Of a stretch of 64,000 nt of DNA, positions 1,009 through 34,937 are shown in pieces. The stretch comes from an uncultured Gammaproteobacteria bacterium (lineage in GTDB: Bacteria > Pseudomonadota > Gammaproteobacteria > Pseudomonadales > Halieaceae), in contig CAWBXR010000011.1 in the NCBI GenBank assembly GCA_963792815.1, positions 138,036 to 202,035 on the forward strand, given 5' to 3'. Numbering within the stretch: position 1 is the stretch's first letter; every line of letters starts with the position of its first letter. The notes below the pieces were generated by a model. The model saw nothing but the letters and a program-made list of their open reading frames with translations, was not told the origin of the DNA and made no database searches. Both the position numbers and the translations under genes were made by a program.

Positions 1009-1018
1009 AAGGGACATC

Positions 1019-1837
1019 ATGCATCTCAATCCCGAACAGCACCAACTGACGGCAATCGTCCTGGCGGGAGACCGTACCAAGGCTGATTCACTTATCAATC
1101 ACTCCAAGGTCGGCAGCAAGGCGATGATCGATATCGATGGCCTGCCGATGGTGCGCCGGGTCCTGAACGCCCTGCGCCTGTCGCGGGTGGTCAACAAGAT
1201 TGCCCTGTCCGGGCCCGAGGCCAGCGAGGTATCCAAGGACGAACAACTGGCACAATGGGTCGAGGCGGGAGAGGTTGAGTGGAGTGAGCCGGGCGCCAGC
1301 CCCAGCACCAGCGCCTACCAGGCCATGCAGGCGCTGGGTCCGGAAGAGGCGGTTCTGCTGACTACCGCGGATCACCCCCTGCTCACCGCCGAGATTGTCG
1401 ATGCCTTTGGTCGCCAGAGCCTTGCGGATGATGTCGACGTCGTGGTCGGCCTGGCGCCGCACGCCCTGGTGCTGGAGGCTTACCCCGGTATCAAGAAGAC
1501 CGTACTGCGCTTCAGTGACGGCGATTTTTGTGGCTGTAACCTGTTTGCCTTCATCACCCCCGAGGGTCGCCGGGCGGCTCGCTTCTGGCGTCGCATCGAG
1601 CAGCAGCGGAAAAAGCCGCTGGTGGTGATAGGCCTGTTGGGCTGGTGGACGGTCATCCGCTACCGCATGGGGCTGCTGTCACTGGAAGAGGCCCTGGCCA
1701 AGCTGAGCAAGCGCCTGGGCCTGCGGATAAGGGCGGTGATTTTACCCTACGCCAATGCCGCTATCGACGTGGATTCGGTGGCGGACCTGATGCTGGTCAA
1801 GGGCTCCCTCGCCAAAGCCGCCGCGGAAAACGCCTGA
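1019..1837 (+). CDS. MobA-like nucleotidyltransferase (NTP_transf_3 type)
   Basis: An in-frame ATG at 1019 inside ORF 899..1837 lies 10 nt after the upstream stop. The N-terminus TAIVLAGDRTKADSL...GSKAMIDIDGLPMV looks like the LAG-type nucleotide-binding loop of MobA/GlmU-like enzymes. Confidence 0.6.
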   Translation: MHLNPEQHQLTAIVLAGDRTKADSLINHSKVGSKAMIDIDGLPMVRRVLNALRLSRVVNKIALSGPEASEVSKDEQLAQWVEAGEVEWSEPGASPSTSAYQAMQALGPEEAVLLTTADHPLLTAEIVDAFGRQSLADDVDVVVGLAPHALVLEAYPGIKKTVLRFSDGDFCGCNLFAFITPEGRRAARFWRRIEQQRKKPLVVIGLLGWWTVIRYRMGLLSLEEALAKLSKRLGLRIRAVILPYANAAIDVDSVADLMLVKGSLAKAAAENA

Positions 1838-4117: not shown

Positions 4118-4118
<1 letters not shown>

Positions 4119-5320
4119 CAGGCGGCCCTGGCCGGCTCGAACAGGCCCGCCTCCTTGAGGCCTGCATAGGCGCTGATAATCCTGTCGATCTGCTCACTGC
4201 TGTGGGCCGCGCTGACACTGTTGCGCAGCAGGAAGTTGGTCGAGGGCGAGGCCGGCGGAATCACCAGGTTGACGTAGACCCCGGCCTCCATCAGCGCCTT
4301 CCAGCAGTCGATGGTGCGGGAGCGATCCACCATTTCCACTGCCACTACCGGGCTGGCGGTGGGGCCTACCGGCAGGTCCAGCGCTTTCAGCCCCTGGTAA
4401 AGCCGGTTGGCGTTATCCCAGACCCGCTGGCGACGCTCGGGCTCCGCGCGGATGATGCGCAGGGCCTCGCGGGTGGAGGCGATCACCGAGGGTGAAGATG
4501 ACGCGGTGAAAATATAGGCCTTGATGCAGAAGCGGATAGCTTCCAGTTCGCTGTGGGGGCTGACACAGAAGCCGCCGATGGAGCCAAGGCTCTTGCTGAA
4601 AGTGCCAACGGTGAAATCCACATCGGCCTCAACCCCAGCGGCCTGCGCGGCGCCGCGACCCGAGTCGCCCAGCACGCCCATGGAGTGAGCCTCGTCCACC
4701 AGCAGGTAGCCGCCGTATTCACGTTTGACCGCGGCGATTTCCTGCAGCGGAGCGACATCGCCCAGCATGGAGTAAATGCCTTCCGCGATGATCAGTGCCT
4801 GGCCCGCACGGTCCCCGAGGCGGCGCATCCGCTTGGCCAGGTCGTCCGGGTCGTTGTGCTTGTAGCGGATGATGTCGGCCTCGCTGAGCTTGACCCCGGA
4901 GTAGATGCTGGCGTGACTGTCCGCGTCCAGCAGTATGACGTCCCCCGGCCCCGCCAGGGTGGCGCACATTCCCATGGTCGCGGCGTAGCCGGTGGAGAAA
5001 ACGATGGCGTTGCTCACGCCGTAAAAGTCCGCTATTTCCCGCTCCAGTGCCTGGTGCTCCGCGAATGAGCCATTGGCCAGGCGCGAACCGGTAGTGCCGG
5101 TGCCCCATTTGGCTGCTGCCTGTTGGGAGGCGGCGATACAGCGCGGGTCGAATGACAGGCCCATGTAGTTGTTGGTACCGGCGAGGATGACCTTGTGGCC
5201 TTCTACCACCCCCTCGGTCGCGGACAGCAGTTGCTCGGTGACGGCACCGAAGGGGACCACTCCGCGTTCGGCGAGTTCGGCCTGAAAGTCGGCCATAGTC
5301 TGGAATTTGTCAAACAGCAT
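4118..5320 (-). CDS. PLP-dependent alpha-oxoamine synthase (Spt/BioF/Kbl family; serine-palmitoyltransferase-like)
   Basis: 400-aa ORF with GTNNYMGLS, LVDEAHSMGVLG and GTFSKSLGSIGGF (Schiff-base Lys context), all typical of the AOS family. Its stop overlaps the murA-like start (TGATG on the minus strand, 4116..4120). A small ACP gene lies directly upstream. Confidence 0.85.
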
Positions 5321-16169: not shown

Positions 16170-17060
16170 TCAAGCGGCCCGAACCAACTCCAGCGCGTCA
16201 GCCCGCAAATGCCCCTGCTCCATTTCTTCTTGCAGCTGGGCTTCAGTGATCACGCCGTCGTCCAGGCAGCCCTTTACCAGGCCGAAGAAGAACTTTTCCT
16301 GGTTGGGGTCCGGGTGGGCGTCGTAGGTGCCGGCGAACTTGTACTCGCCGAACAGGGCGCGACGCGCGCGGCGCAGCCAGTGACGGGGTGGGAACAGCTG
16401 GAAGGTGTCGGCGGGGCGGTAGTCCACCTTGAGGCCGGTCTTCCAGGGTTGGGTCTTGCGCTTGGTGTTGTGCAGCAGCTTGGTCTGCTCGGTGAGATTG
16501 TCGAAGTCGTTCCACTGGCTCTCCAGCCGGCCGATAGTGGCAGGGTCTTCCAGCTTTAGGGAGACCCAGTCCATGTAGTCCCGCTTCGAGGGCTTGAACA
16601 TCTCGGCGAAATTCTCCTCGAAGCGCCAGTGGCGGAGCTTCGCGCAATCCAGCAGCATCACGCTGCTGGCGAAAGCGCCCTTGCGGCCTTTGCGGCCCGA
16701 TTTGGGGCGACACATGATGGCCTTGCCTTCCATGTCCCTGTTGAGCAGTTCCCAGACATCGCCCAGGGCAAACACGTCCGGGTCGATAATCACCGCGCGG
16801 CCCTCGTAGTTCATCAGTTGCGGCGGCGCGAAGCGCAGGGGAGTGAAGGACTGCAGGTCGTTGTTGAGCCATGGGCGCATTTCGCCGTCGCGCAGGTACT
16901 GTTGTCCCTCCCGCTCGGCCATGCAGGGGAAGTCCTTCACCTCGATGAATTTGACATCGAACTGCTCGGCATGGGCAGAATTTTTCTGCAGGGAGTAGCG
17001 ACTGACCACCGCACCCAGCTTCTGCTTGTGGTTGGTGTGAATGAAAACAGTAGGTTTCAA
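16170..17060 (-). CDS. GT8-like (GT-A fold, DxD) glycosyltransferase, paralog 1
   Basis: TTG start at 17060 ((M)KPTVFIHTNHKQ). Contains DLQSFTPLRF, GRAVIIDPDVF (DxD), SSVMLLDCAKLRHW and LHNTKRKTQPWKTGL (GT8-type H..(K/Q)PW motif). Two clear paralogs lie at 18219 and 25197. Confidence 0.65.
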   Translation of the reverse strand: MKPTVFIHTNHKQKLGAVVSRYSLQKNSAHAEQFDVKFIEVKDFPCMAEREGQQYLRDGEMRPWLNNDLQSFTPLRFAPPQLMNYEGRAVIIDPDVFALGDVWELLNRDMEGKAIMCRPKSGRKGRKGAFASSVMLLDCAKLRHWRFEENFAEMFKPSKRDYMDWVSLKLEDPATIGRLESQWNDFDNLTEQTKLLHNTKRKTQPWKTGLKVDYRPADTFQLFPPRHWLRRARRALFGEYKFAGTYDAHPDPNQEKFFFGLVKGCLDDGVITEAQLQEEMEQGHLRADALELVRAA

Positions 17061-17140: not shown

Positions 17141-18244
17141 TTGGAGAGAAATCAAGAGGTCGCAGTCTGGTGCCTGCTGGGCGCGAAGGCCGGGGATAAT
17201 ACCCAGGTGCTCGCCCTGGCGGAGGAGCTGGGCTGCGGCTACGAGGAAAAACATATACGGGCCCGCCCCTGGGAGTTACTCGTTCACCTGGGGGTCGGCC
17301 CGACCCTGGCGGGTATCGACAGGGACGCGTCCAGTGAGCTGCTGCCACCCTGGCCCGACCTGGTCATCAGTGCCGGTCGACGCAACGAGGCAGTGGCCCT
17401 CTGGATAAAGCAACAATCCGGGGGCAGGACCGCACTCGTCCACATGGGACGCCCCTGGGCCGGCCTCGACAAGTGGGACCTGCTGGTAACTACCCCTCAG
17501 TATTTCCTGCCCCGACAGGACAATATCCTGCACAACAGCCTGCCCCTGCACCGGCTTTCCCGGGCAGAACTGCAGGCCGATGGTGAGCGCTTGCGACCGC
17601 GGCTGGAAGGGCTGCCACGGCCCTGGATAGCGTTGCTGGTGGGGGGTGACAGTGGGCGTTTTGTGCTTACCCCCGCCAAGGGTGAGCGCCTGGGAAGCCT
17701 GGCGAACCAGCTGGCCGCGGCCAGTGGCGGCTCTCTGCTGGTGACGGATAGCGCGCGGACGCCGGTGGCGGCGGCAGATGCCCTGCAGGCCCAACTCACC
17801 GCGCCCAACTTCTGCTATCGCTGGGGCGGTGGCGGCGACAACCCCTATCGCAGCCTGCTGGCCCTTGCCGATGCCTTCGTGGTTACCGGCGAATCCATGT
17901 CCATGCTGGGGGAGGCGGTGGCCATGGGGCGTCCGCTGTATATCTTTGATGTCGGTGACGGCTCACTGCCCTGGTGGCGGCTGGCCCACAGTTATCGTTA
18001 CAAGCCTCTGAGCCACCGCCTGGCGATGCGCCTGGGCCCGCTGCGGATGCGGCGGGAAATCGGCAACATCCAGTCCGCGCTGGTCGACAGCGGCCGGGCC
18101 AGTTGGCTGGAGCAGGGGACTATAGCGACAGCTGCCGCGGAACTGGGCGAAACGGCAGCCGGCAGCAGTGCCGTCGGGTCCCTGGCAGCGCAGGAGCTGG
18201 AGCGGACTGCGGCCGCCGTCAGGCGGCTTTTGACAGCGCGCTGA
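17141..18244 (+). CDS. ELM1-like putative GT-B-fold protein, paralog 3
   Basis: TTG start as given by the ORF track; no in-frame ATG lies near the N-terminus. Contains PWPDLVISAG, QSGGRTA and VVTGESMSML blocks. Its 3' end overlaps the convergent GT8-like gene by 26 nt. Confidence 0.65.
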   Translation: MERNQEVAVWCLLGAKAGDNTQVLALAEELGCGYEEKHIRARPWELLVHLGVGPTLAGIDRDASSELLPPWPDLVISAGRRNEAVALWIKQQSGGRTALVHMGRPWAGLDKWDLLVTTPQYFLPRQDNILHNSLPLHRLSRAELQADGERLRPRLEGLPRPWIALLVGGDSGRFVLTPAKGERLGSLANQLAAASGGSLLVTDSARTPVAAADALQAQLTAPNFCYRWGGGGDNPYRSLLALADAFVVTGESMSMLGEAVAMGRPLYIFDVGDGSLPWWRLAHSYRYKPLSHRLAMRLGPLRMRREIGNIQSALVDSGRASWLEQGTIATAAAELGETAAGSSAVGSLAAQELERTAAAVRRLLTAR

Positions 18245-19163
18245 GCGGGTGTGCGGGGGCCGGCGGCAGGTCCGGGGTCCTTGCCAGCACTTCCAGGGCG
18301 TCGTGGCGCACGTGGTTCAGCGCCATCTCGTTGCGCAGGAACTCCTCGGTGATCTTGCCGCTGGCGAGGCACTCCTTGAGCAGGCCGAAAAAGAAGTCTT
18401 CCTGGTTCTGGTCGGGGTGCTGCTTGTAGTTGCCCAGGAAGGCGTACTCGCCGAACAGTTTGCGGCGCGCGCGCATCACCCAGGCCACCGGTGGGAACAG
18501 GCGGAAACGCTCCGCGGGGCGCCAGTCGGTGGGCAGGCCGGTCTTCCAGGGCTGGGTCTTGCGCCGGGTGGTGTGCAGCATTTTGGTGGCAGGGGTGAAT
18601 TTGTCGAAGTCGTTCCACTCGGATTCGAAGAAGTCGATGGTGCTGCGGTCTTCCTCGCGCAGGCAGATCCAGGGCTGGTAGTCCTGGGTGAAATCAAACA
18701 TCGCCTCGAAGCTGCGCTCGGCGTCCCAGTGTTGCAGCCTGGCGCAGTCCAGCAACATCACGCTGCTGGCCATGCAGCGGTCCACCAGGCCCTTGGGGCC
18801 GGAGCGCATGCGACACATGATGGCCTTGCCGTGCATATCGCGGCTGAGCAGTTCCCAGATGTCGGCGGCGGCGAAAATATCAGGGTCGATGACCACGGCC
18901 CGGCCCTCGTAGCCCATCAGTTTGGGGGGCATGAAGCGGGTGGGGGTGAAGGATTGCAGGTCGTCGTTCAGCCAGGTGCGCTTGACGCCGTCGCGCAGGT
19001 ATTCCTGCCCCTCGTGGGCGGCGAACATCGGGTAATCCCGGCTGTCCATGATCTGCACGTCGAACTTGTCGTTGTTGGCGGAATAGCGGCGCAGGGCGTG
19101 CTCGGCCACGATGGCGCCGGTGATCTGCTTCTGGTTGGTCTGGATAAATACGCAGGCTTTCAT
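18219..19163 (-). CDS. GT8-like glycosyltransferase, paralog 2
   Basis: MKACVFIQTNQKQ..., DLQSFTPTRF, GRAVVIDPDIF, SSVMLLDCARLQHW and LHTTRRKTQPWKTGL. Last gene of a six-gene minus-strand operon. Confidence 0.65.
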   Translation of the reverse strand: MKACVFIQTNQKQITGAIVAEHALRRYSANNDKFDVQIMDSRDYPMFAAHEGQEYLRDGVKRTWLNDDLQSFTPTRFMPPKLMGYEGRAVVIDPDIFAAADIWELLSRDMHGKAIMCRMRSGPKGLVDRCMASSVMLLDCARLQHWDAERSFEAMFDFTQDYQPWICLREEDRSTIDFFESEWNDFDKFTPATKMLHTTRRKTQPWKTGLPTDWRPAERFRLFPPVAWVMRARRKLFGEYAFLGNYKQHPDQNQEDFFFGLLKECLASGKITEEFLRNEMALNHVRHDALEVLARTPDLPPAPAHPLSALSKAA

Positions 19164-19239
19164 AATGTTGCGGGGTCCGTTTTACACCGGGCAACTATAA
19201 TGGAACGGGCCCTTTTTTGCCATTTTGAGGGGGGTACTT

Positions 19240-20202
19240 TCAGCGTGAATAGTACTTGATACTGCGCCCGGTCAAGGTGGTGTAGAGCACGCCGCCAGCC
19301 TTCGCCATACGGTACAGGCTGTGCATGAAAGTGCTTTTCGAGAAGATAGAAAAAGGCAATATAATCAAAGAGATAAGCATTTTTGCCAGGGCGGTGGAAA
19401 GCAGTTTCAACATGCGGTTTCCGTCGCCGTGGTAGCGCGCCATATTGACCTGGGAGCAGCCGTTCTTGAAGCCGCGCCTGATCAGCCCGCGGGCGGTGTA
19501 GCGCTCGGGCCCGTGAACCCGGTGGATGATGGATTTTTCCGCCGACGCCAGGCGCGCGCCCATGTGGTGGGCGCGGATGAAGAAGTCCTTGTCCTCGCCG
19601 CCGCTGTTGCAGAAGGCGTGGGAGAAAACCGGCTCCACGTCGCCGACGCGCACCAGGATATTCTTGCTGACCAGCAGGTTGCAGGTAGAGGCGCAGTCGG
19701 GCAGGCCGTAGCGGCCGCCCTTTTTGTCCTGCTTGGTCTTGGTAGGGGAGCGGAATATACCCGACTCCCGGGCCCAGTCAGGCATCTGTTCGTCCAGCAC
19801 CCAGCTGCCGAAAACCAGGTCGGCCCCGGTCTCCTGCTGGCGCTCGAGCAACTGTAGCAACCAGTCCGGCTGGGGTACGTCGTCATCGTCGATAAACGCC
19901 AGGAACCCGGCCCCCCGCTCCAGCGCTACTTTCACGGCGCGATTGCGGGCGTGGGTTATGCCCGGCTCCGGTTCGGTGGTGTAGTGAACATTGATAGGCA
20001 GGCTTGAACCCGTCTGCTCGCAGATGTCGCGGGTGGCGGAATTGGGGTTGTTGTCGATAACGATAAGTTCGACGCCAGCCGGATCGTAGCTGCCCAGCTC
20101 GATATCCATCAGCGTAAGCAGCAGCCGCTTGAGAACTTCCGCGCGGTTATGCGTGCATATGCAAATGGCTACCCGTTGCTCGGGGATGGGGTTTGTGGTC
20201 AT
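19240..20202 (-). CDS. family 2 glycosyltransferase
   Basis: VAICICTHNRAEVLKRLL, VIDNNPNS and LAFIDDDDVP (DxD) are typical of the GT2 N-terminal domain. Hydrophobic C-terminal tail. Confidence 0.8.
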   Translation of the reverse strand: MTTNPIPEQRVAICICTHNRAEVLKRLLLTLMDIELGSYDPAGVELIVIDNNPNSATRDICEQTGSSLPINVHYTTEPEPGITHARNRAVKVALERGAGFLAFIDDDDVPQPDWLLQLLERQQETGADLVFGSWVLDEQMPDWARESGIFRSPTKTKQDKKGGRYGLPDCASTCNLLVSKNILVRVGDVEPVFSHAFCNSGGEDKDFFIRAHHMGARLASAEKSIIHRVHGPERYTARGLIRRGFKNGCSQVNMARYHGDGNRMLKLLSTALAKMLISLIILPFSIFSKSTFMHSLYRMAKAGGVLYTTLTGRSIKYYSR

Positions 20203-20205
20203 GCG

Positions 20206-21144
20206 TTACTTGAATATACCGCGGCGGTAGAGGCCCCAGAAGAATCCCCACAGGTAGATGAGCGGGGCTCGCCTGACCTTGTCGGGAATGACGATGTTCT
20301 CCCCGGAATGCCGTTCCAGTTTCCACGCGATATAATCCAGTCCCCCCTCGAACGTAAACAACGCTTTTACCAATCTCATTATTGAGAGCAGTTTCCCCTG
20401 GCCCCGGCGCAGCGTCCACGCAATCCGCGTAAACAACTGGCTGCTCCGAGCAGTTGCACTGCGGTAGCTCATTTGGCCGCCGACATCATACACCGTAAAG
20501 CCAAAGCCAAGCGAGGGGGACAATTGCCGGGTAACTTCGGCATAGAAGTCGGCGGCGGCCAGGGCCAGTTCGGTAGCCCTGCCCGGGCGCTCGGTGCGCA
20601 GCTCGGTCGAGTAGCTAAGGGCCAGGGCCTGCTCCCACAGGCTGGTCACGGTGCCCTGGGGCGGCAGCACCGGCAGGGTGTTGTGCAACAGCGTCCGGGA
20701 GGCCTGCAGCAGGCAGTGTTCCAGTCCCTGCCGGGTCTGCGCGTCGCGGCTGTAGACGATTCTGGTGGGCTGGGCGAAACGGCCCCAGATATAGGACTCA
20801 AACCAGGCCCGGGAGCAGCCGCGCCGGAAATCCCGCAGGGAAATAACCGTCACCTTGCTGCGCAGGGTCTTGTTCGCCAGCTTGTGCTCCGCGTAGAACA
20901 CGTTCGGTGGCAGCAGCCAGTTGGCCCCCGCCAGCAGCGGCTTGCGGTAGGCTGCGCGGTAGCCGTCGCAGATCAGGTAGAGATCCAGCAGGCCGTCGTA
21001 GATATCGCCGCTGCGCAGGCAGGAGCCGTAGAGCAGGATGCCGCAGATAGCGTCGTGGTGGCGCGCCCGTAATTGCCCCAGCAGCGCCGCCAGGGCGGGG
21101 TCGCTGGCGGCGTCGGGGCCGGCTACATGCGGGTAATCGCTCAC
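20206..21144 (-). CDS. Tam41/Mmp37-like putative lipid-phosphate nucleotidyltransferase (weak assignment)
   Basis: ORF 20206..21348 trimmed to the in-frame GTG at 21144, which overlaps the upstream kinase stop as GTGA. ILLYGSCLRSGD...GLLDLYLIC and VFYAEH...KVTVISLRDF...YIWGRFAQPTRIV recall the Tam41 (PF09139) pattern. This is recognition from memory only. Confidence 0.4.
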   Translation of the reverse strand: MSDYPHVAGPDAASDPALAALLGQLRARHHDAICGILLYGSCLRSGDIYDGLLDLYLICDGYRAAYRKPLLAGANWLLPPNVFYAEHKLANKTLRSKVTVISLRDFRRGCSRAWFESYIWGRFAQPTRIVYSRDAQTRQGLEHCLLQASRTLLHNTLPVLPPQGTVTSLWEQALALSYSTELRTERPGRATELALAAADFYAEVTRQLSPSLGFGFTVYDVGGQMSYRSATARSSQLFTRIAWTLRRGQGKLLSIMRLVKALFTFEGGLDYIAWKLERHSGENIVIPDKVRRAPLIYLWGFFWGLYRRGIFK

Positions 21145-22106
21145 AGGGTGAGAAAGTCCAGGGGCTCGCTGGCGCAGATATCGACCGGCCCGTTTGCCAC
21201 CAGTATTTCCCCGTCGAGGTTCAGTTTGCCATCGAGTTGCAGGCGTATCCGCTGGGCATTGTGGCTGAGATAGCCCGATCCGGATACAGCGTTGCGGTTC
21301 GGCCTGCCCCTGACAATCGACAGGAAAGTGCGGGCGAAGCGGCTGCAACCCTGCTGGAACAGCGTGAGGCGGATCGCGCCGGGGCCGGAACCCCAGAACG
21401 GGCGCATGCCGAAAGCCAGGCGCTGCAGGGTGCTGATCGCCAGGATCAGGGTGTCGTAGCTGGCAGCCCCGCCGTCATCGAGTGTCAGTTCAATACTGAC
21501 ATGGCGGTTGAAGGCCGGGTCGTTGCGGAGCAAACCCCATACAGTGCGCAGGGTTGTCAGGGCCAGGCTGAAATCGTCCCGCAGGCCGCGGGCGTGCACC
21601 TCCTTGTGGGCGTATTCGGTACCCTGGATGATCGCCCCGCCGCCGAGGAACATCCCGTAGCGGGCGGGCTGGTCAGCGCCGAGCTCCACCCGCATAAGCG
21701 CTCGCTGGGCGAGCATGCCCGCGGTTGCGCGCTCGCCCTCGCACCAGTGGCAGAAGCGTTCGGTGGCTTTCCACAGGGAGCCGCTGACACCGATATCGCC
21801 GGCGTTCATGTTGGCGGTGCCGCCCGGCAGGAGCACGATGATGGGCGGGGTTTCGAACAGGCCGCTTTCCAGCAGCTCGCCCAGTATGTTCGAGGCTGTG
21901 CCGTCTCCCCCGTTGATCGCCAGCACTCCCACCCGGGTCTGGGCCAGCTCCGCCAGGGCCGGCCCGACGTCGTCCAGGCTGTGGGTAACTATGTGGTGGA
22001 TCGAGGGACAGCGGGCGATGCGGTTGCGGATGCGTTCGAACTGGTCGCGGTTATGGCCGCTGCCAGGGTTGCTGATCAGCCCCACCGGGCCGGCGGCCCT
22101 GCTCAC
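21141..22106 (-). CDS. DAG-kinase-catalytic-domain lipid kinase (YegS/BmrU-like)
   Basis: GLISNPGSGHN, LAINGGDGT and LLPGGTANM motifs. The GTG start overlaps the upstream stop (GTGA at 22103..22106). Confidence 0.8.
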   Translation of the reverse strand: MSRAAGPVGLISNPGSGHNRDQFERIRNRIARCPSIHHIVTHSLDDVGPALAELAQTRVGVLAINGGDGTASNILGELLESGLFETPPIIVLLPGGTANMNAGDIGVSGSLWKATERFCHWCEGERATAGMLAQRALMRVELGADQPARYGMFLGGGAIIQGTEYAHKEVHARGLRDDFSLALTTLRTVWGLLRNDPAFNRHVSIELTLDDGGAASYDTLILAISTLQRLAFGMRPFWGSGPGAIRLTLFQQGCSRFARTFLSIVRGRPNRNAVSGSGYLSHNAQRIRLQLDGKLNLDGEILVANGPVDICASEPLDFLTL

Positions 22107-22969
22107 TCAGCGGCTTCCCGCAGGGTCGCCGACTTGAGGTTGATTTCGGCATTGCCGATCCGCGGCGCGGTGCCGCGCAATTGCACCGGCAGGCTGTTGG
22201 TCACGTCAAACAGCACGGTGATGTCACCGGCGCCGTCCAGGCCCAGCAGGCTGAAGTCGGGCTTTTCCGCCAGTTCACCCAGGGGGCTGACTTGCAGCGT
22301 CACGCCTCGGGTCTCGCGCTTGCCCGTTACCGCCGCGGCGCCCTGCAGCTGGTAGTTCATCTCGATGGTGGGCCCTTCGCCACGGCTCATTTGCACCCGG
22401 TAAAAATTGAATTCAGTGTTCACCACCGCCTCGGTCGAGGTCTGGTCCGAGTCCAGGAAGCGACCCGCGAGATCGAGCAGGGCGTAGGCGTCGGTCACCA
22501 CCATGCCCGAGGCGGCTGGGGGGTAGGGTATCTTGTGGCGACTGCTAACCGGCCACTCGGCCGGTGGCAGATCCGTTTTGGCTGGTGGGTCATGGCGCAC
22601 CCGCAAAATGTCCTTGGGTCGGAACGCATAGGTCTTGTAGCGCTGCTGCTTGCCCTTGCTGAAGCGCGACCGGTACAGTGCGCGGCCGTCAGCCGGCGCC
22701 AGGTCCAGCACCACCACCTCGACGTTGCTGGCTACCGAGCTGTCAGCCTTGAGCTGCCAGCGCCCGGCGTCCTCGCTGTGTTCGCCAATCTCCACCCGCG
22801 ACCTGGCGGTGACAAAGTACGCCTGCTGTTCGTATTCCAGTACCTGCCAGGCCGGCAGTGGCGGCAGCGCCTCCTTTGAGTTGCCGGCGGCTGCGGCAGG
22901 CAGGCTCGCGAGGGCGGCCGCCGACAGCAGGCAGCAGTGGATAAGCGGGTTACGGGTTATTCTTGTCAT
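22103..22969 (-). CDS. exported hypothetical protein
   Basis: 288 aa with an N-terminal signal peptide (LIHCCLLSAAALASLPAAAAG). ATGA overlap with the upstream ligase-like gene. No family confidently recognised. Confidence 0.6.
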   Translation of the reverse strand: MTRITRNPLIHCCLLSAAALASLPAAAAGNSKEALPPLPAWQVLEYEQQAYFVTARSRVEIGEHSEDAGRWQLKADSSVASNVEVVVLDLAPADGRALYRSRFSKGKQQRYKTYAFRPKDILRVRHDPPAKTDLPPAEWPVSSRHKIPYPPAASGMVVTDAYALLDLAGRFLDSDQTSTEAVVNTEFNFYRVQMSRGEGPTIEMNYQLQGAAAVTGKRETRGVTLQVSPLGELAEKPDFSLLGLDGAGDITVLFDVTNSLPVQLRGTAPRIGNAEINLKSATLREAAE

Positions 22970-24141
22970 TGGTCATGTCCAGGGTAGCGAGCCTTTGCCG
23001 GCAGGTGGCTGGCCGGGTAGGTGGCCATGATAAGCGCCACGGGCAGCCAGAAAAACAGCCACAGTTCCTTGGGCTGAACGAACAGCCGGTCGTAGTCCAT
23101 GGCGACAGATGTCGTACCGTATAGGAGTAGCGCCAGGTAGATTCGTTCCCCGCGCTGGCGATACATCTGCCAGGCCTGGTAGGCGGCTACCGCGAGCAGG
23201 GCCAGCAACAGCGCCAGTCCCACCAGGCCGCCGTCGCGCAGTGTGGCCAGATAACTGTTGTGGGCATGGTCGAACAGCTTGCCGTAGGCCGGAACCCTGG
23301 GGTCGATCAGGTAGCCGTGACCAAACCACCAGTAGCCCTGCATGTCTGTCAGCACCTGCTGCCAGATGCCGGGACGAAAGGAGAAATCGCCGACCCGGTG
23401 CAGCCAGAGGCTGGAGTTGGTGGCCATCACCGCCCACATCGTGGCGACACCGGCCGCAGCCACTCCCAGCGCCCGGTAACCGAGCAGCACCAGCAGGCCG
23501 ACACAGACCCCGGCCATGGCCGTGCGCGACTGGGTGAACACAATCAGGCACAGGATTGCCAGGGACAGCGAAGCGTATACCCACCTGTTTTCCCGTCCTC
23601 GCTGCGTGAATACGTAGTGCATGCACAACACCAGGAAAATGCCGTAGGCGGAGGCCGCCTTGTTCTGGTGGTGCATTACGCCCAGGGGTTCCAGTCGGGA
23701 TTCGGGAAAGGGATTCTGCAGGTACCAGGCCGCGATCGACACCACGGCGGCGGCGGCCGCCAGCCAGGTGGCGCGATGGGCCAGCAGGTCCATCAGGCTG
23801 GCCTGGCGCACCCACAGGTAACCGCTGATAAAGCAGAAGCTCAGGACGCACAGGGCATAGCCCGCCGCCTGCAGTGCCGGCAGCAGTTCAAAGTCCGCCG
23901 TCCACAGCAGGCTGCTCATCATGTAGCAGCAGTAGAGCAGAAGCAGCAGCGCGAGTGTGTTGGCGCGGTAGAACTGTGCCAGTTCGCGCCACAGCACCAG
24001 GACGGCGGGCAGCACCAGGACGTAGTAGACCTTGCGGTGGCCCGAGGCCATGGGCAGCAGGAAGTAACCGGCGATGAATACGGCGTAAAAGTACACCATT
24101 CCCCGGTCCAACAGGAATCGCTGAAATGCCTTGAAATCCAT
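22966..24141 (-). CDS. O-antigen ligase (Wzy_C) family membrane protein
   Basis: 391 aa and polytopic. Contains FTQSRTAMAGVCVGLLVLLGY and HAHNSYLATLRDGGLVGL, characteristic of WaaL/Wzy_C proteins. First gene of the six-gene minus-strand operon. Confidence 0.75.
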   Translation of the reverse strand: MDFKAFQRFLLDRGMVYFYAVFIAGYFLLPMASGHRKVYYVLVLPAVLVLWRELAQFYRANTLALLLLLYCCYMMSSLLWTADFELLPALQAAGYALCVLSFCFISGYLWVRQASLMDLLAHRATWLAAAAAVVSIAAWYLQNPFPESRLEPLGVMHHQNKAASAYGIFLVLCMHYVFTQRGRENRWVYASLSLAILCLIVFTQSRTAMAGVCVGLLVLLGYRALGVAAAGVATMWAVMATNSSLWLHRVGDFSFRPGIWQQVLTDMQGYWWFGHGYLIDPRVPAYGKLFDHAHNSYLATLRDGGLVGLALLLALLAVAAYQAWQMYRQRGERIYLALLLYGTTSVAMDYDRLFVQPKELWLFFWLPVALIMATYPASHLPAKARYPGHDQ

Positions 24142-24203
24142 AAATTTCAGATACTTGCGAGGGCTGATCGAAAGCCGTTAAAAATACCACCTAATCTTGA
24201 GAA

Positions 24204-24249
24204 TGCCCCGATCATCCTATAACCTTCGCCACTTCGTCTGCCCCGATCA
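24204..24249. promoter_or_regulatory. 11-nt direct repeat TGCCCCGATCA x2 upstream of sulfotransferase 4
   Basis: Exact copies at 24204..24214 and 24239..24249 (35-nt period). They lie in the AT-richer divergent gap 24142..24269; the second copy ends 20 nt before ATG 24270. Confidence 0.3.
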
Positions 24250-24269
24250 GGGGAATAGGTATTCTTATC

Positions 24270-25193
24270 ATGCACATGATTATCAAGCGACTGACCAAGT
24301 GGCTGGTTCGCGCGATTTCCATATTCCTGCCCGAAGCGAAGGCGCACGAACTCGAGCGCTGGCGCCGCGGGCGCGAGGAGTTCTGGAAGTATAACCGCTG
24401 CCAATACATCTTTGCATCCTATGGCAAGAGCGGGCGTACCTGGGTGCGGGTGATGATCTCCCGCTACTACCAGCTGGTGTACAAGCTGCCCGACAATATC
24501 CTGATGGGTTTCGACAATTACACCCGTCTCAACAAGGACATCCCGAAAATCTTCTTTACCCACGACAATTACCTGCGCGGCTTCACCGGCAATGTCGATT
24601 CGAAGAAGGATTTCTACGACAAGAAAACCGTGCTGCTGGTGCGCAATCCCATCGACGTCGCCGTGTCGCAGTTCTTCCAGTGGAAGTACCGTATGCGCCC
24701 GGAAAAAAAGGCGATGAACAAGTATCCGGAGCACGAGGCCGATATCTCGGTATATGACTTCGTCAAGGACGAGAACCAGGGCCTGTCCCACATCATCGAG
24801 TTCATGAACAACTGGGCGCGTGAGTTGCCGAAGATCAAGAGCTTGCTGGTGGTTCGCTACGAGGACCTGCGCAGCAGTCCGGAGCGGGAGATGGGGCGCA
24901 TCGTCGAATTCCTGGGTATGGAAGCCAATGAGGAATACCTGCGCGATACCGCGGAGTTTGCCTCGGTGGAAAACCTGCGCAAGAAAGAACAGGAGAACTA
25001 TTTCTGGCGCAGCGGCAGCCGGGTGCAAGCCAAGGACGTCAACGATCCCAATACCTTCAAGGTGCGCAAGGCCAAGGTGGGCGGCTACCGCGATTACTTT
25101 GACGACGATCAAGTGGCAGAGCTCGACGCGATGGTAGATTCGCGCCTGTTACCGGTATTCGGGTATACCGCCGCCGAGAGCACGGGGGGCTGA
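24270..25193 (+). CDS. PAPS-dependent sulfotransferase-domain protein, paralog 4
   Basis: YGKSGRTWV, LVRNPIDVAVSQF and FKVRKAKVGGYRDYF. First gene of a plus-strand operon. Confidence 0.85.
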   Translation: MHMIIKRLTKWLVRAISIFLPEAKAHELERWRRGREEFWKYNRCQYIFASYGKSGRTWVRVMISRYYQLVYKLPDNILMGFDNYTRLNKDIPKIFFTHDNYLRGFTGNVDSKKDFYDKKTVLLVRNPIDVAVSQFFQWKYRMRPEKKAMNKYPEHEADISVYDFVKDENQGLSHIIEFMNNWARELPKIKSLLVVRYEDLRSSPEREMGRIVEFLGMEANEEYLRDTAEFASVENLRKKEQENYFWRSGSRVQAKDVNDPNTFKVRKAKVGGYRDYFDDDQVAELDAMVDSRLLPVFGYTAAESTGG

Positions 25194-29613: not shown

Positions 29614-31344
29614 CTATCCCTTGGTCACCAGTATGTCTTCCATCACCAGGTATTCCAGGTCCGAACCGAAGAACATCTCCAGGGCATCGAGGGGTGAGCA
29701 CACCATTGCCTCGCCCCGGCGATTGAGCGAAGTATTCAGCACCACGCCGTTGCCGGTCAGTCTTTCCATTTCCTCCATCAGCGCGTAGTAGACGTCGTTA
29801 AGCCCCGGCTCCAGCGCCTGGGCGCGGGCGGTGCCGTCCTCGTGCACTACCTCGGGCACCCTGGTTTTCCATGCATCGTTCACCTCGAAGGTAAAGGTCA
29901 TGAAAGGGGCCGGGTGATCCACTGCAAACATCTGCGGCGCCACCCGGCTGAGCATGCTCGGGCAGAACGGGCGCCAGCGCTCGCGAAATTTTATCTGGGC
30001 GTTGATACGGTCCGCCACGCCGGGGCTGCTGGGGCAGCCAAGGATCGAGCGGCCGCCCAGGGCCCGCGGTCCGAATTCCATCCTGCCCTGGAACCAGGCC
30101 ACCGGGTTGCCCGCCACCAGCAGGCCGGCAGTTTCCGCCGCCGCATTGTCGAGCCTGCGCCAGCGGGGTTTGCCCGGGTGCTGCTCGCAGGCGGCAATCA
30201 CCTGTGCGCTGCTGTAAGCGGGGCCCAGGTAGACGTGCTCCATCTTCTGTACCGCAACGCCGCGGCGCTCCGAGGCATAGGCCGCCGCACCTATAGCCGT
30301 TCCCGAGTCCCCCGATGCCGGCTGCACGAACAATTCCTTCACCTCGTTGCGGGCGATGATCTTCTGGTTGAGCTTGACGTTGAGCGCGCCGCCACCGGCG
30401 AAGGCCAGCCTGCCGGTCTCGCTGATAATGTCTCCCAGGTAATGATCCATCATCTGCAGGGCGAGTTTCTCGAACAGGGCCTGCATGCTGGCGGCATAGT
30501 GTATATAGGGCTCGTCGGCCACATCGCCCTCGCGCATGGGTCCCAGCCAGTCGACCAGCCTGTCGCTGAAGTAGTAACCCCTGCCCCTGCGCTTGTGGCG
30601 GCGCAGGCCGATGACATTGGCGTAGCGGGTGTCGATCTGCAGTTCGCCCCCCTCGAAGCTGGCCAGGCGGGAGAAATCGAATCGTTGCGGATCACCGTAG
30701 GGCGCCATGCCCATCACCTTGTACTCGCCGTCGAGCATGTCGAAGCCAAGGAACTCGGTAATGGCGCCGTACAGTCCGCCCAGGGAGTCCGGGTCGATGA
30801 ACTCCTTGATGGTGTGAATCCTGCGGTGCTCGCCGTAGCCGAAGAACGTGGTGGCGTACTCGCCCTTACCGTCGATGCCCATGATCGCGGTTTTTTCGCC
30901 GAAGCCGCTGCAGTGGTAGGCGCTGGAAGCATGCGCCAGGTGGTGTTCCACCGGGTCCAGGGCTACCCGGGCCGGGTCGATGCCCAGTTGCTCCAGCAGG
31001 CCGATGATCCGTCCCCGGTAGCGGCGGTAGCGACGATTGCCGTTGAACAGCGCGTCGAGTGCGCGGTCCGGCGCGTACCAGTAGCGTCGGGCGTAATGCC
31101 AGCGGTGTGGCCTGGTGATGGGGATGGGGGCGAAGGGTATGGCCACCACATCGACAGCGCCCGGCCCGATGCCCGCCTGCTCCAGGCAGAACCTGGCGGA
31201 CTCCAGTGGCAGTCGATTTTTGGCGTGCTTGTCGCGGACAAAGCGCTCTTCCTCCGCCGCCGCCACCAGGGCGCCATCGATGTACAGCGCGGCGGAAGGG
31301 TCGTGGTTCAGCGCGCCGGACAGGCCCAGTACGGTCAGTGCCAC
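29614..31344 (-). CDS. NodU/CmcH-family carbamoyltransferase
   Basis: 576 aa. The N-terminus LGLSGALNHDPSAALYIDGALVAAAEEERFVRDKH and overall length are typical of the family. Confidence 0.8.
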   Translation of the reverse strand: MALTVLGLSGALNHDPSAALYIDGALVAAAEEERFVRDKHAKNRLPLESARFCLEQAGIGPGAVDVVAIPFAPIPITRPHRWHYARRYWYAPDRALDALFNGNRRYRRYRGRIIGLLEQLGIDPARVALDPVEHHLAHASSAYHCSGFGEKTAIMGIDGKGEYATTFFGYGEHRRIHTIKEFIDPDSLGGLYGAITEFLGFDMLDGEYKVMGMAPYGDPQRFDFSRLASFEGGELQIDTRYANVIGLRRHKRRGRGYYFSDRLVDWLGPMREGDVADEPYIHYAASMQALFEKLALQMMDHYLGDIISETGRLAFAGGGALNVKLNQKIIARNEVKELFVQPASGDSGTAIGAAAYASERRGVAVQKMEHVYLGPAYSSAQVIAACEQHPGKPRWRRLDNAAAETAGLLVAGNPVAWFQGRMEFGPRALGGRSILGCPSSPGVADRINAQIKFRERWRPFCPSMLSRVAPQMFAVDHPAPFMTFTFEVNDAWKTRVPEVVHEDGTARAQALEPGLNDVYYALMEEMERLTGNGVVLNTSLNRRGEAMVCSPLDALEMFFGSDLEYLVMEDILVTKG

Positions 31345-31362
31345 GGGCTCAACCCGACCGGC

Positions 31363-33243
31363 TCAGGGCACATACCAGATGGGAGAGGTATAGGCGCGTT
31401 CCTGGATGGCGGCCGGGTAGGGCTCCGGCGGCGGTATCTTCAGCGCAGCCGCATCGTAAGTCGAATGTCGCGGTGTCGGTATCTGCAGTACGCGCACGTA
31501 GTAGAACGCGCTCTGCTCCGGGTCGAATTCCGGGTCCTCCCACACGGTGGCCAGTTGCGCCGCGCCTATGGTGTTGGCGTAGCTGGCGCCGGCCTCGTCC
31601 ACGGTATTGCCAACCGGGGGCAGCGAGCCATTGGCCAGTGGCAGGCGTTCGCCGGACCAGGCCACATCAAATATTTTCTCCCGGCTGTTCCCTCCGGCGT
31701 CGAGCCAGCCCTTGATCACCTGGACCCGGTCCAGGTTGGCGCCCCTGGGGTCCTTCTGGGCGCTGATCAGCAGCCTGATGCCGCCGGGGGCCGCGCTGGC
31801 GCCCGCAAGCTCGCCGCCCATGGGCACGCCGCCGGCATAGCCCAGGTTTGCCAGGTCGGGGGACTCCGCGTCCTCAGGAACAAAGTTCCAGCCGGCAAAC
31901 AGTCGCAACCCGATGCGGGGCCCGGTGGTGGCGTACACTTCACGCCGCTGCATGGCATCGAAAATACCCTGGCGGGTATTTTCCGTGGCCCATACCGCCG
32001 CCATTCCCGCCGCCGCCATGTCCCAGCCGACCGCTTTCACGCCACCCAGGGAGTCACCGGTCTTGTTTTCGGGAATGGAGTCATAGGCCATCTTGCCCCA
32101 GAAATTCTCCTCCTCCGCACTGGACAGGCCGGTGTGGGCGTCGGTGGAACCGATCAGGCCGAACTGGAAGGGGTTGGAACCCGCTTTGCGCTTGATCTGC
32201 AGTCCCCGGCCCAGGGCGGGCCTGACAAAGTCACCCACCGCCGCGCGGTAGCCCTGCCAGTCCTGCTGGAGGTAGAACTCGAAAGGCTCAAACCCGGCGA
32301 AGGGATCTTCCGGGGACAGGCTGGGGTGGGTTTCGGAGTCGCCCTTGATCTGGGTCATTTCCACCACCGGCTCCCAGCGCCGCCGGGTTTTTATATATTC
32401 GGCGCTCATGGGTTCGCCGCGCAGGGTGGTCTCGTCGAACATATAGCCTTTGGAGATATTGGAATTGTGCGGGATGGCGATGAACTGGCTTCCCGTGCGA
32501 GAGGACGTGGCCTCCAGCCAGGCCCAGAGGTCTTCCGGGTACTGGCTCTGGTCCGACCCGTAGGGCATGTACTGGGCTGCCTGCTCCCCGCCATTGGGGG
32601 TGACCACCACCCGGTGCAGGTTAGCCCCCGCGGGAATCGAGCTCCACTCCCAGCCCAGCAGGGCGGTGAAGCGCCCGGGGTCGTTATTGGCCTCCGCCGC
32701 GGCGATGGTTTCGTTCCAGCTGGTGACAACGGTGGGTGAGATATCCCCCAGTGAGTCGTTCAGGGGTGTATTACCCGAGTCCAGAACCGGGTCGTCGCCC
32801 CACTGGTCCAGTCTCACGGGCAGCAGATCCCTGAAAACGACAGGGCCGTAGCCGGTCCACATGGCCAGCCGTATCGTCCATGCCGAGAACCAGCGTTTCA
32901 CCGCCGGCCAGCCGGAGAGCTCGCCGAACTCCTCCCGGTGGTTGACGATGGCCCGCAGCACTCCCATGCCCTCCGCGTGATCGGATACCACCAGGAAGTC
33001 CAGCGGTGTGTCGATGCGCACCCGGGCGCGGTGGTAGGAGTGAATCACCGGCAGACCCCGCGCCCAACGGTACGCGGTGTCCGGGTCGACGGAATCGTTC
33101 TGGTTGAGGAACGCATCGAACGAGTAGGAGGTGTGCAGGTGTGTATCGCCCCAGTACAACCGGGTCGGCTCGGCGGCGGTGGGGCCAGCGCAGAATAGCA
33201 CGGACACCAGTACTGCCAGGGCGGCGCTGAATCGCTTGTTCAT
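31363..33243 (-). CDS. DUF3604-family secreted metal-dependent protein
   Basis: Start moved to ATG 33243 (MNKRFSAALAVLVSVLFCAG signal peptide, GGAGGA 8 nt upstream). YWGDTHLHTSYSFDAF is the hallmark N-terminal motif. Confidence 0.75.
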   Translation of the reverse strand: MNKRFSAALAVLVSVLFCAGPTAAEPTRLYWGDTHLHTSYSFDAFLNQNDSVDPDTAYRWARGLPVIHSYHRARVRIDTPLDFLVVSDHAEGMGVLRAIVNHREEFGELSGWPAVKRWFSAWTIRLAMWTGYGPVVFRDLLPVRLDQWGDDPVLDSGNTPLNDSLGDISPTVVTSWNETIAAAEANNDPGRFTALLGWEWSSIPAGANLHRVVVTPNGGEQAAQYMPYGSDQSQYPEDLWAWLEATSSRTGSQFIAIPHNSNISKGYMFDETTLRGEPMSAEYIKTRRRWEPVVEMTQIKGDSETHPSLSPEDPFAGFEPFEFYLQQDWQGYRAAVGDFVRPALGRGLQIKRKAGSNPFQFGLIGSTDAHTGLSSAEEENFWGKMAYDSIPENKTGDSLGGVKAVGWDMAAAGMAAVWATENTRQGIFDAMQRREVYATTGPRIGLRLFAGWNFVPEDAESPDLANLGYAGGVPMGGELAGASAAPGGIRLLISAQKDPRGANLDRVQVIKGWLDAGGNSREKIFDVAWSGERLPLANGSLPPVGNTVDEAGASYANTIGAAQLATVWEDPEFDPEQSAFYYVRVLQIPTPRHSTYDAAALKIPPPEPYPAAIQERAYTSPIWYVP

Positions 33244-33269
33244 GTAGCTGTCCTCCGGGCCGCAGCTGA

Positions 33270-34937
33270 TCAACCGGCTTTACGCTGGCGGGAGGCGGAT
33301 TTTGGTTTAACCGCAGGTCTGGCCGCCCGGGCGGTTTTTTTGGCTGCCGGGGCGGCCCGGGTTTTTGCCCTGGGTGTCGCTGTGGCCTTTTTAACCGTTG
33401 TCTTACTGGTCCTGGTTTTGGCCTTGGCTTTTTTGGCCTTGGCTTTTTTGGCAGTGGCCTTCTTGGTCGTAGCCCTCGCCGGGACCGCTTTGCGCCTGGT
33501 TGGAGCGCTGCCCACGGTAGCGGCCAGCAGCGCGTCGAAACTTTCCTGCAGGCACTGGCGGTAGAAATCGGGATCTGGCATCAGCTCCCGGCAGGAGGTG
33601 ATTGATATGCTGAACTCGCCGCAGTAGCTGCTGATGACATGGAACAAGCCCACGCTGTCCAGCACCGGCCCGGTGCCCAGGTTGGACAACATCTTTGCGC
33701 CGGTGTTGTACAGCGGCTCCTGGGGCCCCGGTACATTGGTGATCACGCAGTTATACATGGGCTTGATCTGGTTCATCAGGTTCCAGCGGCTGGCCAGGCG
33801 CGCGGCCTGGGCGGTGAGGGTGCTGGGAATGAACTGGGTGTAGTCGGTCATGGACTTGGCGCCGATCGCGTTGGCCAGTTCCTTGGCCTCCAGCGCGTGC
33901 TGGTGCACCGCTGCCAGTCGCTCCGCAGGGTTTTCGATATCGTTGCGCAGGAGCACCGCCATGGCCGACACCACATTGCCCGCGGTGCCTTTGTCGGAGG
34001 GATCGCGCACATTGATAGGCGCCATGGCGACCAGGCTGGCTTCCGGCAGTTCGCCCTTGGCCTCCAGGTAGCGACGCAGGCCGCCGCCACACAGGGTGAT
34101 CGCCACGTCGTTGACGGTAGCCCCGGGCACCGCATTCTTGATGGCCTTGATGTCGCTCAGGGGGAACCTGGCGGCATCGAAAACCCGGTGGGCGGACACG
34201 GCCGCGTTGAAGCGGGTGCGGGGTACGTCCGGAATCCGGTGCAGTTCGCCCTTGCGCAGGCGGGCATAGGCCCGGGCAAAGCCGGGTACCGTATTGCGGG
34301 CGACGGAAATCATCCGGAAGGGCTGCCTGAGATTGTTCAGCTGGGAGCGCAGCACCAGTTCCAGCGGCCCGGGCGTTCGGGTGACTTCGATCTCGTGGGG
34401 TTCGGCATTCTGGTGGGCATCGGGGCTGAGGTCGTGCAGCGCAGCGGTGATTTCCATCCCGGAGGCGCCGTCGACGGCGGCATGATGCATCTTGGTAAAG
34501 ATGGCGAAACAGCCAGGCGGGTAGCCTTTGATATTGTCCAGGCCTTCGATGACATACATCTCCCACAGGGGGCGGCCGCGGTCCAGGGGGCGGGCGTGCA
34601 GGCGCGCCACCTGGATGCACAGCTGGCGCCAGTCTCCCGGGGCGGGCAGCGCGATATGGCGGATATGGAACTCCGGATCAAAGCTGCCGTCCGACACCCA
34701 ATAGGGGTGATCAAGCCCGAGGGGCACGGTCAACAGGTGCCGGGACAGGATAGGCAGGCGCTTGATGCGGTTGGTGGTGTTTTCAATAATTTCCTTGAAG
34801 CGCACCTTGCCTCCCGGCGCCGTGGACTGGTCGTATATGGCCAGGCTGGAGATGTGCATCGGGGCGTTGGCTGTCTCGAGATACAGGAACGAGGCGTCGA
34901 GTCCGGAAAGTTGTCGCATTGGCTGGAATCCTGTCAA
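33270..34937 (-). CDS. wax ester synthase/diacylglycerol acyltransferase (WS/DGAT) with basic Lys/Ala-rich C-terminal tail
   Basis: LDASFLYLE N-terminus and the HHAAVDGASG (HHxxxDG) catalytic motif. The last 77 aa contain 29 K/R and no D/E (my count). Confidence 0.85.
   Translation of the reverse strand: MTGFQPMRQLSGLDASFLYLETANAPMHISSLAIYDQSTAPGGKVRFKEIIENTTNRIKRLPILSRHLLTVPLGLDHPYWVSDGSFDPEFHIRHIALPAPGDWRQLCIQVARLHARPLDRGRPLWEMYVIEGLDNIKGYPPGCFAIFTKMHHAAVDGASGMEITAALHDLSPDAHQNAEPHEIEVTRTPGPLELVLRSQLNNLRQPFRMISVARNTVPGFARAYARLRKGELHRIPDVPRTRFNAAVSAHRVFDAARFPLSDIKAIKNAVPGATVNDVAITLCGGGLRRYLEAKGELPEASLVAMAPINVRDPSDKGTAGNVVSAMAVLLRNDIENPAERLAAVHQHALEAKELANAIGAKSMTDYTQFIPSTLTAQAARLASRWNLMNQIKPMYNCVITNVPGPQEPLYNTGAKMLSNLGTGPVLDSVGLFHVISSYCGEFSISITSCRELMPDPDFYRQCLQESFDALLAATVGSAPTRRKAVPARATTKKATAKKAKAKKAKAKTRTSKTTVKKATATPRAKTRAAPAAKKTARAARPAVKPKSASRQRKAG
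33420..33449. repeat. 15-nt tandem repeat GGCCTTGGCTTTTTT x2 (plus degenerate flanking copies) inside the WS/DGAT tail
   Basis: Perfect duplication at 33420..33434 and 33435..33449. On the coding (minus) strand it encodes the KKAKA KKAKA repeat. Confidence 0.8.

Follow-up and report, generated by a model that had tools for sequence, protein, structure and literature searches.

A very probable cpgB-cpgC pair in a Halieaceae sphingolipid locus joins a ceramide kinase-type gene to a predicted Tam41-fold nucleotidyltransferase

The window analysed here is a stretch of 64,000 nucleotides from contig CAWBXR010000011.1 (positions 138,036 to 202,035 of the forward strand) of an uncultured gammaproteobacterium of the family Halieaceae (GCA_963792815.1). 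Its minus strand carries two overlapping genes, one for a lipid kinase and one for a protein of 312 amino acids, which an original prediction made from the letters alone took for a possible lipid-activation pair. The pair is not new: it is, with high probability, of the cpgB/cpgC type, the two sphingolipid genes that were defined genetically in Caulobacter (PMC9393093). The genes and their junction are the following:

21141 to 22106, minus strand: cpgB-type lipid (ceramide) kinase, 321 amino acids, GTG start at 22106, TGA stop at 21143-21141
20206 to 21144, minus strand: cpgC-type protein, predicted Tam41-fold nucleotidyltransferase, 312 amino acids, GTG start at 21144-21142
21141 to 21144, minus strand: GTGA overlap, the kinase stop TGA and the cpgC start GTG with 4 nucleotides in common

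The coordinates, the kinase motifs and the GTGA junction were all read correctly in the original prediction. A GTG at 21144 does open the 312-amino-acid frame, but calling it "in-frame" was loose, as the two genes lie in different reading frames of the minus strand and share four nucleotides. The cpgC start is supported by homologues at 53-92% identity, which are 312-317 amino acids long and cover the whole query. How widely is this arrangement kept? The NTGA junction is present in all 21 Halieaceae loci checked. Among 401 sampled Pseudomonadota genomes the cpgC family is present in 17; of the 16 besides this one, 15 have a kinase gene immediately upstream of cpgC and in the same orientation. 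About 121 locus records contain both genes (a few are duplicates) and span Caulobacteraceae, Sphingomonadales, Halieaceae and other Alpha- and Gammaproteobacteria; 89 of them have the 4-nucleotide NTGA overlap, and the remainder have a gap of at most 30 nucleotides in all but three records, where it is 147 nucleotides. These counts bear out the view that the pair is conserved and translationally coupled, and the overlap of stop and start would cause both enzymes to be produced together.

The three records with the longer gap (L057, L058 and L060) come from Phenylobacterium/Caulobacteraceae metagenome-assembled genomes. There the kinase frame ends 147 nucleotides before the cpgC start and kinase-like sequence persists past the stop, and the kinase gene is probably frameshifted or broken, if the assembly is not in error.

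The CpgC domain also occurs in natural fusions. It is joined in frame to CpgB in P0194 (662 amino acids), to the CDP-alcohol phosphotransferase CpgA (CDP, cytidine diphosphate) in P0223 (757 amino acids, 44% identical to CpgA of Caulobacter segnis) and to an NTP_transf_3 enzyme in the metagenomic protein P0255. Two long open frames, in L011 and L015 (675 and 631 amino acids), were considered as further kinase-CpgC fusions and rejected, the kinase sitting in another frame.

The kinase carries the motifs AINGGDGTAS and LLPGGTANM (NGGDGT being residues 65-70) and matches Pfam DAGK_cat with an E value of 3e-12 and 46.7 bits, against a cutoff of 23.6. Its closest counterpart is the syntenic CpgB of C. 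segnis, to which it is 24% identical over 278 amino acids (BLASTP, E 8e-21; residues 45-319 of 321), and a genome search with that protein finds this kinase as its sole match. The expected lipid kinase with a DAGK catalytic domain is thus there, and this match places it with CpgB, the bacterial ceramide kinase type. The GGDG motif is on record for CpgB (PMC10331486), and the Caulobacter enzyme (CCNA_01218, CC_1160) is an ATP-dependent ceramide kinase, as demonstrated in vitro with purified protein (PMC10331486). The NCBIfam equivalog models for YegS and DgkB give only 13-25 bits, below cutoffs of 118-505, and matches to kinases of the YegS/DgkB/BmrU type in the Protein Data Bank (PDB) and NCBIfam are weak (E about 0.01) and limited to the first 120 residues or so.

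For the 312-amino-acid protein, the match to the syntenic C. segnis CpgC (L068:5998-6915) is stronger, with 34% identity over 281 amino acids (BLASTP, E 1e-43), and here too the window protein is the sole match in its own genome. In C. segnis, cpgA (for a CDP-alcohol phosphotransferase) comes first, then cpgB (for a DAGK_cat kinase) and cpgC (without a Pfam match), followed by Spt in convergent orientation and by genes for a CerR-like reductase and an AMP-binding enzyme, in agreement with the published order (PMC9393093, PMC11324152). A named-genome search, whose query was a seven-sequence alignment of alpha-type proteins, finds the family all through Caulobacter, Phenylobacterium, Brevundimonas, Sphingomonas, Erythrobacter and their relatives. 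The Caulobacter gene (CCNA_01219, CC_1161) was initially described as having no conserved domains (PMC9393093). Deletion of cpgB abolishes ceramide phosphate there, while deletion of cpgC leaves ceramide phosphate in place and abolishes ceramide phosphoglycerate (PMC9393093); cpgC is needed to turn ceramide-1-phosphate into ceramide phosphoglycerate (PMC9393093, PMC11324152). The idea of phosphorylation, nucleotidylation and head-group transfer in sequence, as in the original prediction, had already been put forward in 2024 for CC_1160/CC_1161 (PMC11324152).

What kind of enzyme is CpgC? Tam41, to which the N-terminal half of the window protein had been likened, is the CTP:phosphatidate cytidylyltransferase of mitochondria and Firmicutes and makes CDP-diacylglycerol from phosphatidate. 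Taken singly, the protein says little: a phmmer search of the PDB with it returns no match, and a six-frame search of the genome with the Pfam Tam41 model reaches 19.6 bits. The CpgC family is large (1179 clusters at 50% identity), and a profile built from 95 of its members, whose identity to the window protein is 29-51%, is more telling. It matches Schizosaccharomyces pombe Tam41 (6IG2/6IG4) with an E value of 1.7e-7; a collinear weak N-terminal profile match sets the YGS...D of the family on the YGS...D of Tam41, and the motifs aligned with the S. pombe protein are YGS...D, KY, RFxxP and SYxx(E/D)xR...E. Individually, 30 of the 95 relatives match Pfam Tam41 at E 0.01 or better (best 5.7e-13), the family member P0130 reaches 34.3 bits, and no other Pfam family recurs among the 95.

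Structure prediction points the same way. An AlphaFold2 (AF2) model of the 312-amino-acid protein, built on the 95-member alignment, has a predicted local distance difference test score (pLDDT) of 93.5 and a predicted template modelling score (pTM) of 0.89. In a Foldseek search with this model the top five PDB matches are all Tam41 (a Firmicutes protein in complex with cytidine triphosphate (CTP) and magnesium, 7ECD, and S. pombe Tam41), with E values of about 2e-9 and template modelling (TM) scores of 0.50-0.61. The next class, the aminoglycoside nucleotidyltransferases (ANT(4')), follows at E about 1e-5 and TM about 0.3. From profile and model, the protein is predicted to be a Tam41-fold nucleotidyltransferase, and the resemblance to Tam41/Mmp37 proves real, by the family profile, the Foldseek ranking and the relatives that fall in Pfam Tam41 by themselves.

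Thirteen columns are invariant across the 95 sequences: Y39, G40, D54, P80, V82, K97, R122, Q125, E181, R183, E185, Y271 and K275; S41 is kept in 93 of them. Those that lie before the final third of the protein align with the Tam41 motifs KY, RFxxP and SYxx(D)xR...E. Of the three acidic positions that are canonical for nucleotidyltransferases, D54 alone is invariant. Could the protein then be inert, and serve at the membrane as an adaptor or chaperone by which ceramide-1-phosphate is passed to a different enzyme or to the machinery of export? The loss of two acidic residues would suit such a role, as would the fact that a membrane-type C-terminal block is the most conserved part of the family. 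However, active Tam41 has the same pattern, a single canonical acidic residue, according to a structural review (PMC11646218), and residues of the Tam41 nucleotide pocket that stay invariant in sequences so far diverged from the query are unexpected for a dead fold. An inert CpgC is therefore very improbable.

The surroundings of the pair are those of a sphingolipid locus, as the presence of Spt indicates. Two of the genes concerned are:

4118 to 5320, minus strand: Spt, serine palmitoyltransferase-type alpha-oxoamine synthase (Pfam Aminotran_1_2, E 7e-53)
899 to 1837, plus strand: NTP_transf_3-type nucleotidyltransferase, directly after a CerS-like gene (Pfam NTP_transf_3, E 2.6e-13)

The Spt is 46-53% identical to Spt proteins encoded beside cpgBC in other lineages. 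Together, the window and the 12 kb upstream of it contain Spt, a GNAT-type CerS, an AMP-binding AasR, a CerR-like gene, a metallophosphoesterase, LptF/LptG paralogues and an MsbA-like exporter, and the tailoring genes of the locus encode ELM1-like, GT8-like and GT2 glycosyltransferases, several sulfotransferases and 2-oxoglutarate (2OG) oxygenases. The product of 899-1837 shares 38% identity with the NTP_transf_3 part of the P0255 fusion to CpgC, and its only PDB match is TTHA0179; the gene is a candidate of the CpgD (CC_1152) or the CC_1153 class.

Further genes were seen on either side. Also encoded in the upstream 12 kb (L103, 3662-8659) are a homologue of lipid A-type acyltransferases (Lip_A_acyltrans), another class I/II aminotransferase, one more sulfotransferase, one more 2OG oxygenase and a 484-amino-acid protein without a Pfam match. 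Beyond the sphingolipid locus, at 29614-34937 on the minus strand, lie genes for a carbamoyltransferase, a DUF3604 protein (741 bits) and a wax-ester synthase (WS/DGAT).

Co-occurrence ties cpgC to this pathway. A cpgC homologue is found in 56 of 121 Halieaceae genomes, which as relatives are not independent of each other, and its presence is all-or-none in most genera sampled; an Spt orthologue accompanies it in every one of the 56 and occurs in none of the others. It follows that the Halieaceae acquire or lose sphingolipid capability as a whole.

The same evidence bears on whether the pair might consist of a diacylglycerol kinase and a true Tam41-type CDP-diacylglycerol synthase, a second, CdsA-independent route to glycerophospholipids. 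The original prediction had left the lipid phosphate open between ceramide and diacylglycerol. Diacylglycerol kinases do occur among DAGK_cat kinases, the Firmicutes Tam41 relative (7ECD) makes CDP-diacylglycerol (cited in PMC11646218), and yeast Tam41 rescues Escherichia coli depleted of CdsA (PMC7018664). Against this, the genome carries a canonical CdsA (195.8 bits), so cpgC is unlikely to be the CDP-diacylglycerol synthase of the cell; the genes are confined to the Halieaceae genomes that have Spt; the scores of the DgkB and YegS models fall far under their cutoffs; and in mutants of the orthologous cpgBC it is ceramide phosphate and ceramide phosphoglycerate that change, and not the glycerophospholipids (PMC9393093). 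A glycerophospholipid route is thus extremely unlikely, and of the two lipids the ceramide half of the suggestion stands, on the sphingolipid locus and the exact match with Spt, while the canonical CdsA speaks against the diacylglycerol half.

In the window the pair sits within a longer operon, whose other members are:

22966 to 24141, minus strand: membrane protein of the Wzy_C/O-antigen ligase family, first gene of the operon (Pfam Wzy_C, E 1.1e-9)
22103 to 22969, minus strand: exported beta-barrel protein (P0003, 288 amino acids; AF2 model, N-terminal hydrophobic leader)
19240 to 20202, minus strand: GT2 glycosyltransferase (Pfam Glycos_transf_2, E 1.3e-23)
18219 to 19163, minus strand: GT8-like glycosyltransferase, whose gene closes the operon (a paralogue of 16170-17060, which itself has a weak Glyco_transf_8 match)

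The genes are closely packed. The barrel gene is GTGA-coupled to the start of the kinase and ATGA-coupled to the preceding Wzy_C gene, and the GT2 gene begins 3 nucleotides past the cpgC stop; a promoter and terminator scan of 17900-24400 gives nothing above chance within the operon. The barrel gene lies directly upstream of cpgB in all ten Halieaceae genomes examined. The other partners are less constant over ten Halieaceae loci: the Wzy_C gene stands beside the trio in six and is separated from it by one gene in a seventh (seven in all), GT2 follows cpgC in five and is nearby in a sixth, and GT8-like copies, 82-88% identical, lie downstream of cpgC in nine. The GT8-like copy at 18219-19163 has no Pfam match of its own.

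The barrel protein has no Pfam or NCBIfam match either. Its AF2 model (pLDDT 89.8) is all-beta, a closed or half beta-barrel, and among PDB entries it comes closest to the Brucella DUF1849 barrel 6NTR (TM 0.50-0.59), followed by LolA/VioE-like half barrels, which are lipid carriers. The 159 homologues found diverge fast, and every named match comes from a Halieaceae-type genome. With its signal-type leader the protein cannot be a cytoplasmic transferase; a periplasmic role in lipid handling may be guessed.

What is missing from the operon is cpgA. The order cpgA-cpgB-cpgC is found in five of the eight non-Halieaceae loci examined. In the window genome, which is 99.6% complete, tblastn finds no CpgA homologue, and neither the window nor its contig contains one. 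Three CDP-OH_P_transf genes lie on other contigs (C1, C6 and C7) and are short, of housekeeping size; these generic CDP-alcohol phosphotransferases were rejected as CpgA, as C. segnis CpgA does not match them at E 1e-5. Zymomonas also does without cpgA (PMC11324152), so the gene is not universal to cpgBC loci. No paper combining Halieaceae and sphingolipids was found in the literature searched, and relative to that literature the lineage and the gene context of the pair are new.

How would the two enzymes work together? In a first step, proposed by orthology with the Caulobacter enzyme, the kinase would use ATP to convert ceramide, supplied by the Spt and CerS of the locus, into ceramide-1-phosphate. 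The Tam41-fold protein, held at the cytoplasmic face of the membrane by its basic, aromatic C-terminal helices, would then transfer cytidine monophosphate (CMP) from CTP onto ceramide-1-phosphate, giving CDP-ceramide and pyrophosphate, as Tam41 does with phosphatidate; fold, conserved active-site residues, fusions and genetics all suggest this second step. Finally, the hydroxyl of an acceptor would displace CMP to yield ceramide-phospho-X, where X is glycerate in Caulobacter, and glycosyltransferases and sulfotransferases encoded in the locus would presumably extend the product. The scheme fits the fold and its intact Tam41-type pocket, the ceramide phosphate that accumulates when cpgC is deleted and the energetic need for activation. 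It also fits the other CDP chemistry of the pathway, since CpgD makes CDP-glycerate (PMC12275187) and CpgA is a CDP-alcohol phosphotransferase. A ceramide activated with a nucleoside diphosphate (NDP) was proposed for CC_1161 in 2024, with the nucleotide left open as "NDP" (PMC11324152, Conclusions). Taken as a whole, the statement that this is the Halieaceae cpgB/cpgC pair, whose kinase makes ceramide-1-phosphate and whose CpgC makes CDP-ceramide, is slightly favoured; the narrower statement, that the second enzyme makes CDP- or another NDP-ceramide, also comes out a little better than even.

Several observations weigh against the CDP-ceramide scheme. To our knowledge there is no biochemical evidence for any CpgC, and we know of no transferase in any organism that consumes CDP-ceramide. 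The very term "CDP-ceramide" is absent from the literature searched, and papers of 2025 and May 2026 still describe the action of CpgC as "via an unidentified mechanism" (PMC12275187, PMC13228409). The Tam41 match of the window protein itself is sub-threshold in Pfam (Tam41_Mmp37, PF09139; E 4.7e-4, 20.0 bits against a cutoff of 24). Identity to the Tam41 structures is 15-17%, at which level substrate and nucleotide specificity cannot be read from sequence. Pfam Tam41 does not detect CpgC of Caulobacter vibrioides, and so the "InterPro domain" cited for it (PMC11324152) presumably stems from another member database. Caulobacter CpgA is dispensable for the first phosphoglycerate (PMC9393093, PMC11324152), and the window genome has no CpgA at all. 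Finally, the best-conserved block of the family lies outside the Tam41 sequence match, and CpgC may for that reason do more than, or something other than, the Tam41 reaction.

This block comprises residues 243-281 (within 20206-20444 of the window, minus strand), with a mean top-residue frequency of 0.70 against 0.57 in the nucleotidyltransferase core, and contains W243, R246, G250, R257, K260, T264, F265, Y271, W274, K275, R278, H279 and G281. The last 80 residues of the protein include 15 lysines or arginines and 5 aspartates or glutamates. By analogy with Tam41, whose C-terminus binds the membrane (PMC7018664), the block may be a membrane anchor and lipid gate, or it may be something more. 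If it were more, CpgC might alone turn ceramide-1-phosphate into ceramide-phospho-X, through an enzyme-bound nucleotidyl intermediate or a second, C-terminal site, with no free CDP-ceramide and no separate transferase. Such an enzyme would explain why the first Caulobacter phosphoglycerate has no known requirement beyond cpgB and cpgC, no third gene having been found (PMC9393093, PMC11324152), why the Halieaceae retain cpgBC without cpgA, and why nothing in the Tam41 sequence match corresponds to the best-conserved block. Yet Tam41 itself yields only the CDP-lipid, scans of Pfam and NCBIfam reveal none of the catalytic motifs of known transferase classes, and the basic, aromatic helix bundle at the C-terminus resembles the membrane-binding end of Tam41, an anchor or lipid gate. 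Complete conversion by CpgC alone is on balance unlikely, and CDP-ceramide as a free intermediate stays the preferred reading.

Are ceramide-1-phosphate and CTP the right substrates? Another lipid phosphate, such as a phosphorylated long-chain base or a glycosylated ceramide, or a nucleotide other than CTP, would give a different NDP-lipid. The low identity of the kinase to CpgB of the Caulobacter type leaves room for this, as do a Halieaceae tailoring set that is very different (GT2, GT8-like and ELM1-like proteins, sulfotransferases and 2OG oxygenases, with no cpgA) and the undefined nucleotide of the published proposal (PMC11324152). Nevertheless, the CpgB alignment is full length and the kinase is the single reciprocal match in the genome, the order of kinase and cpgC and their junction are conserved from Caulobacter to the Halieaceae, the closest structures bind CTP, and a CpgC domain fused to a CDP-alcohol phosphotransferase is a sign of CDP chemistry in the pathway. 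A different substrate or nucleotide is thus decidedly unlikely, and the preferred reaction is ceramide-1-phosphate + CTP -> CDP-ceramide.

In the biochemistry of bacterial phosphosphingolipids, the step that follows the ceramide kinase is the chief gap. In Caulobacter, phosphosphingolipids can partly replace lipopolysaccharide (LPS) and are the target of polymyxins. For the most part, the findings made here restate the hypothesis printed in 2024 with added evidence. What the Halieaceae version adds is a cpgBC pair that works without cpgA, in abundant marine bacteria, and is joined to genes that add sugars and sulfate; the head group built from the activated ceramide is probably new. It is conceivable, if rather doubtful, that cpgBC has been cut off from cpgA and wired to the glycosyltransferases, the sulfotransferases and the O-antigen ligase-like protein in such a way that CDP-ceramide is the donor for a phosphodiester-linked sugar head group, with the C-terminal block of CpgC doing or gating the transfer. 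The product would then be a sulfated phospho-glycosphingolipid, acting as an LPS-like lipid of the outer membrane.

Three known systems invite comparison. With Tam41/Mmp37 (PDB 6IG2, 6IG4 and 7ECD) the window protein has about 270-285 aligned columns in common, an architecture of a nucleotidyltransferase domain with a helical/winged-helix part, and a C-terminus of the peripheral-membrane type. It differs in its distinct, highly conserved basic C-terminal block and in its genomic context, which is that of sphingolipids and not of cardiolipin or glycerophospholipids, with CdsA also present; the substrate here would likely be ceramide-1-phosphate and not phosphatidate. The window kinase resembles the YegS, DgkB and BmrU kinases in its catalytic domain and GGDG nucleotide loop; their match is restricted to its N-terminal 120 residues or so, whereas that to CpgB is near full length.

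The closest likeness is to CpgB-CpgC of Caulobacter. The two families, their order and the 4-nucleotide overlap of stop and start (ATGA in C. segnis, GTGA here) are the same, and both loci contain spt, cerS, LptF/G paralogues and a metallophosphoesterase. In contrast, identity is low (24% for the kinase, 34% for CpgC), an exported beta-barrel gene takes the position before cpgB that cpgA has in Caulobacter, and the operon runs on into GT2 and GT8-like glycosyltransferases. With cpgA absent, the barrel gene in its place and glycosyltransferases downstream, the final head group in the Halieaceae is probably not the diphosphoglycerate of the Caulobacter pathway.

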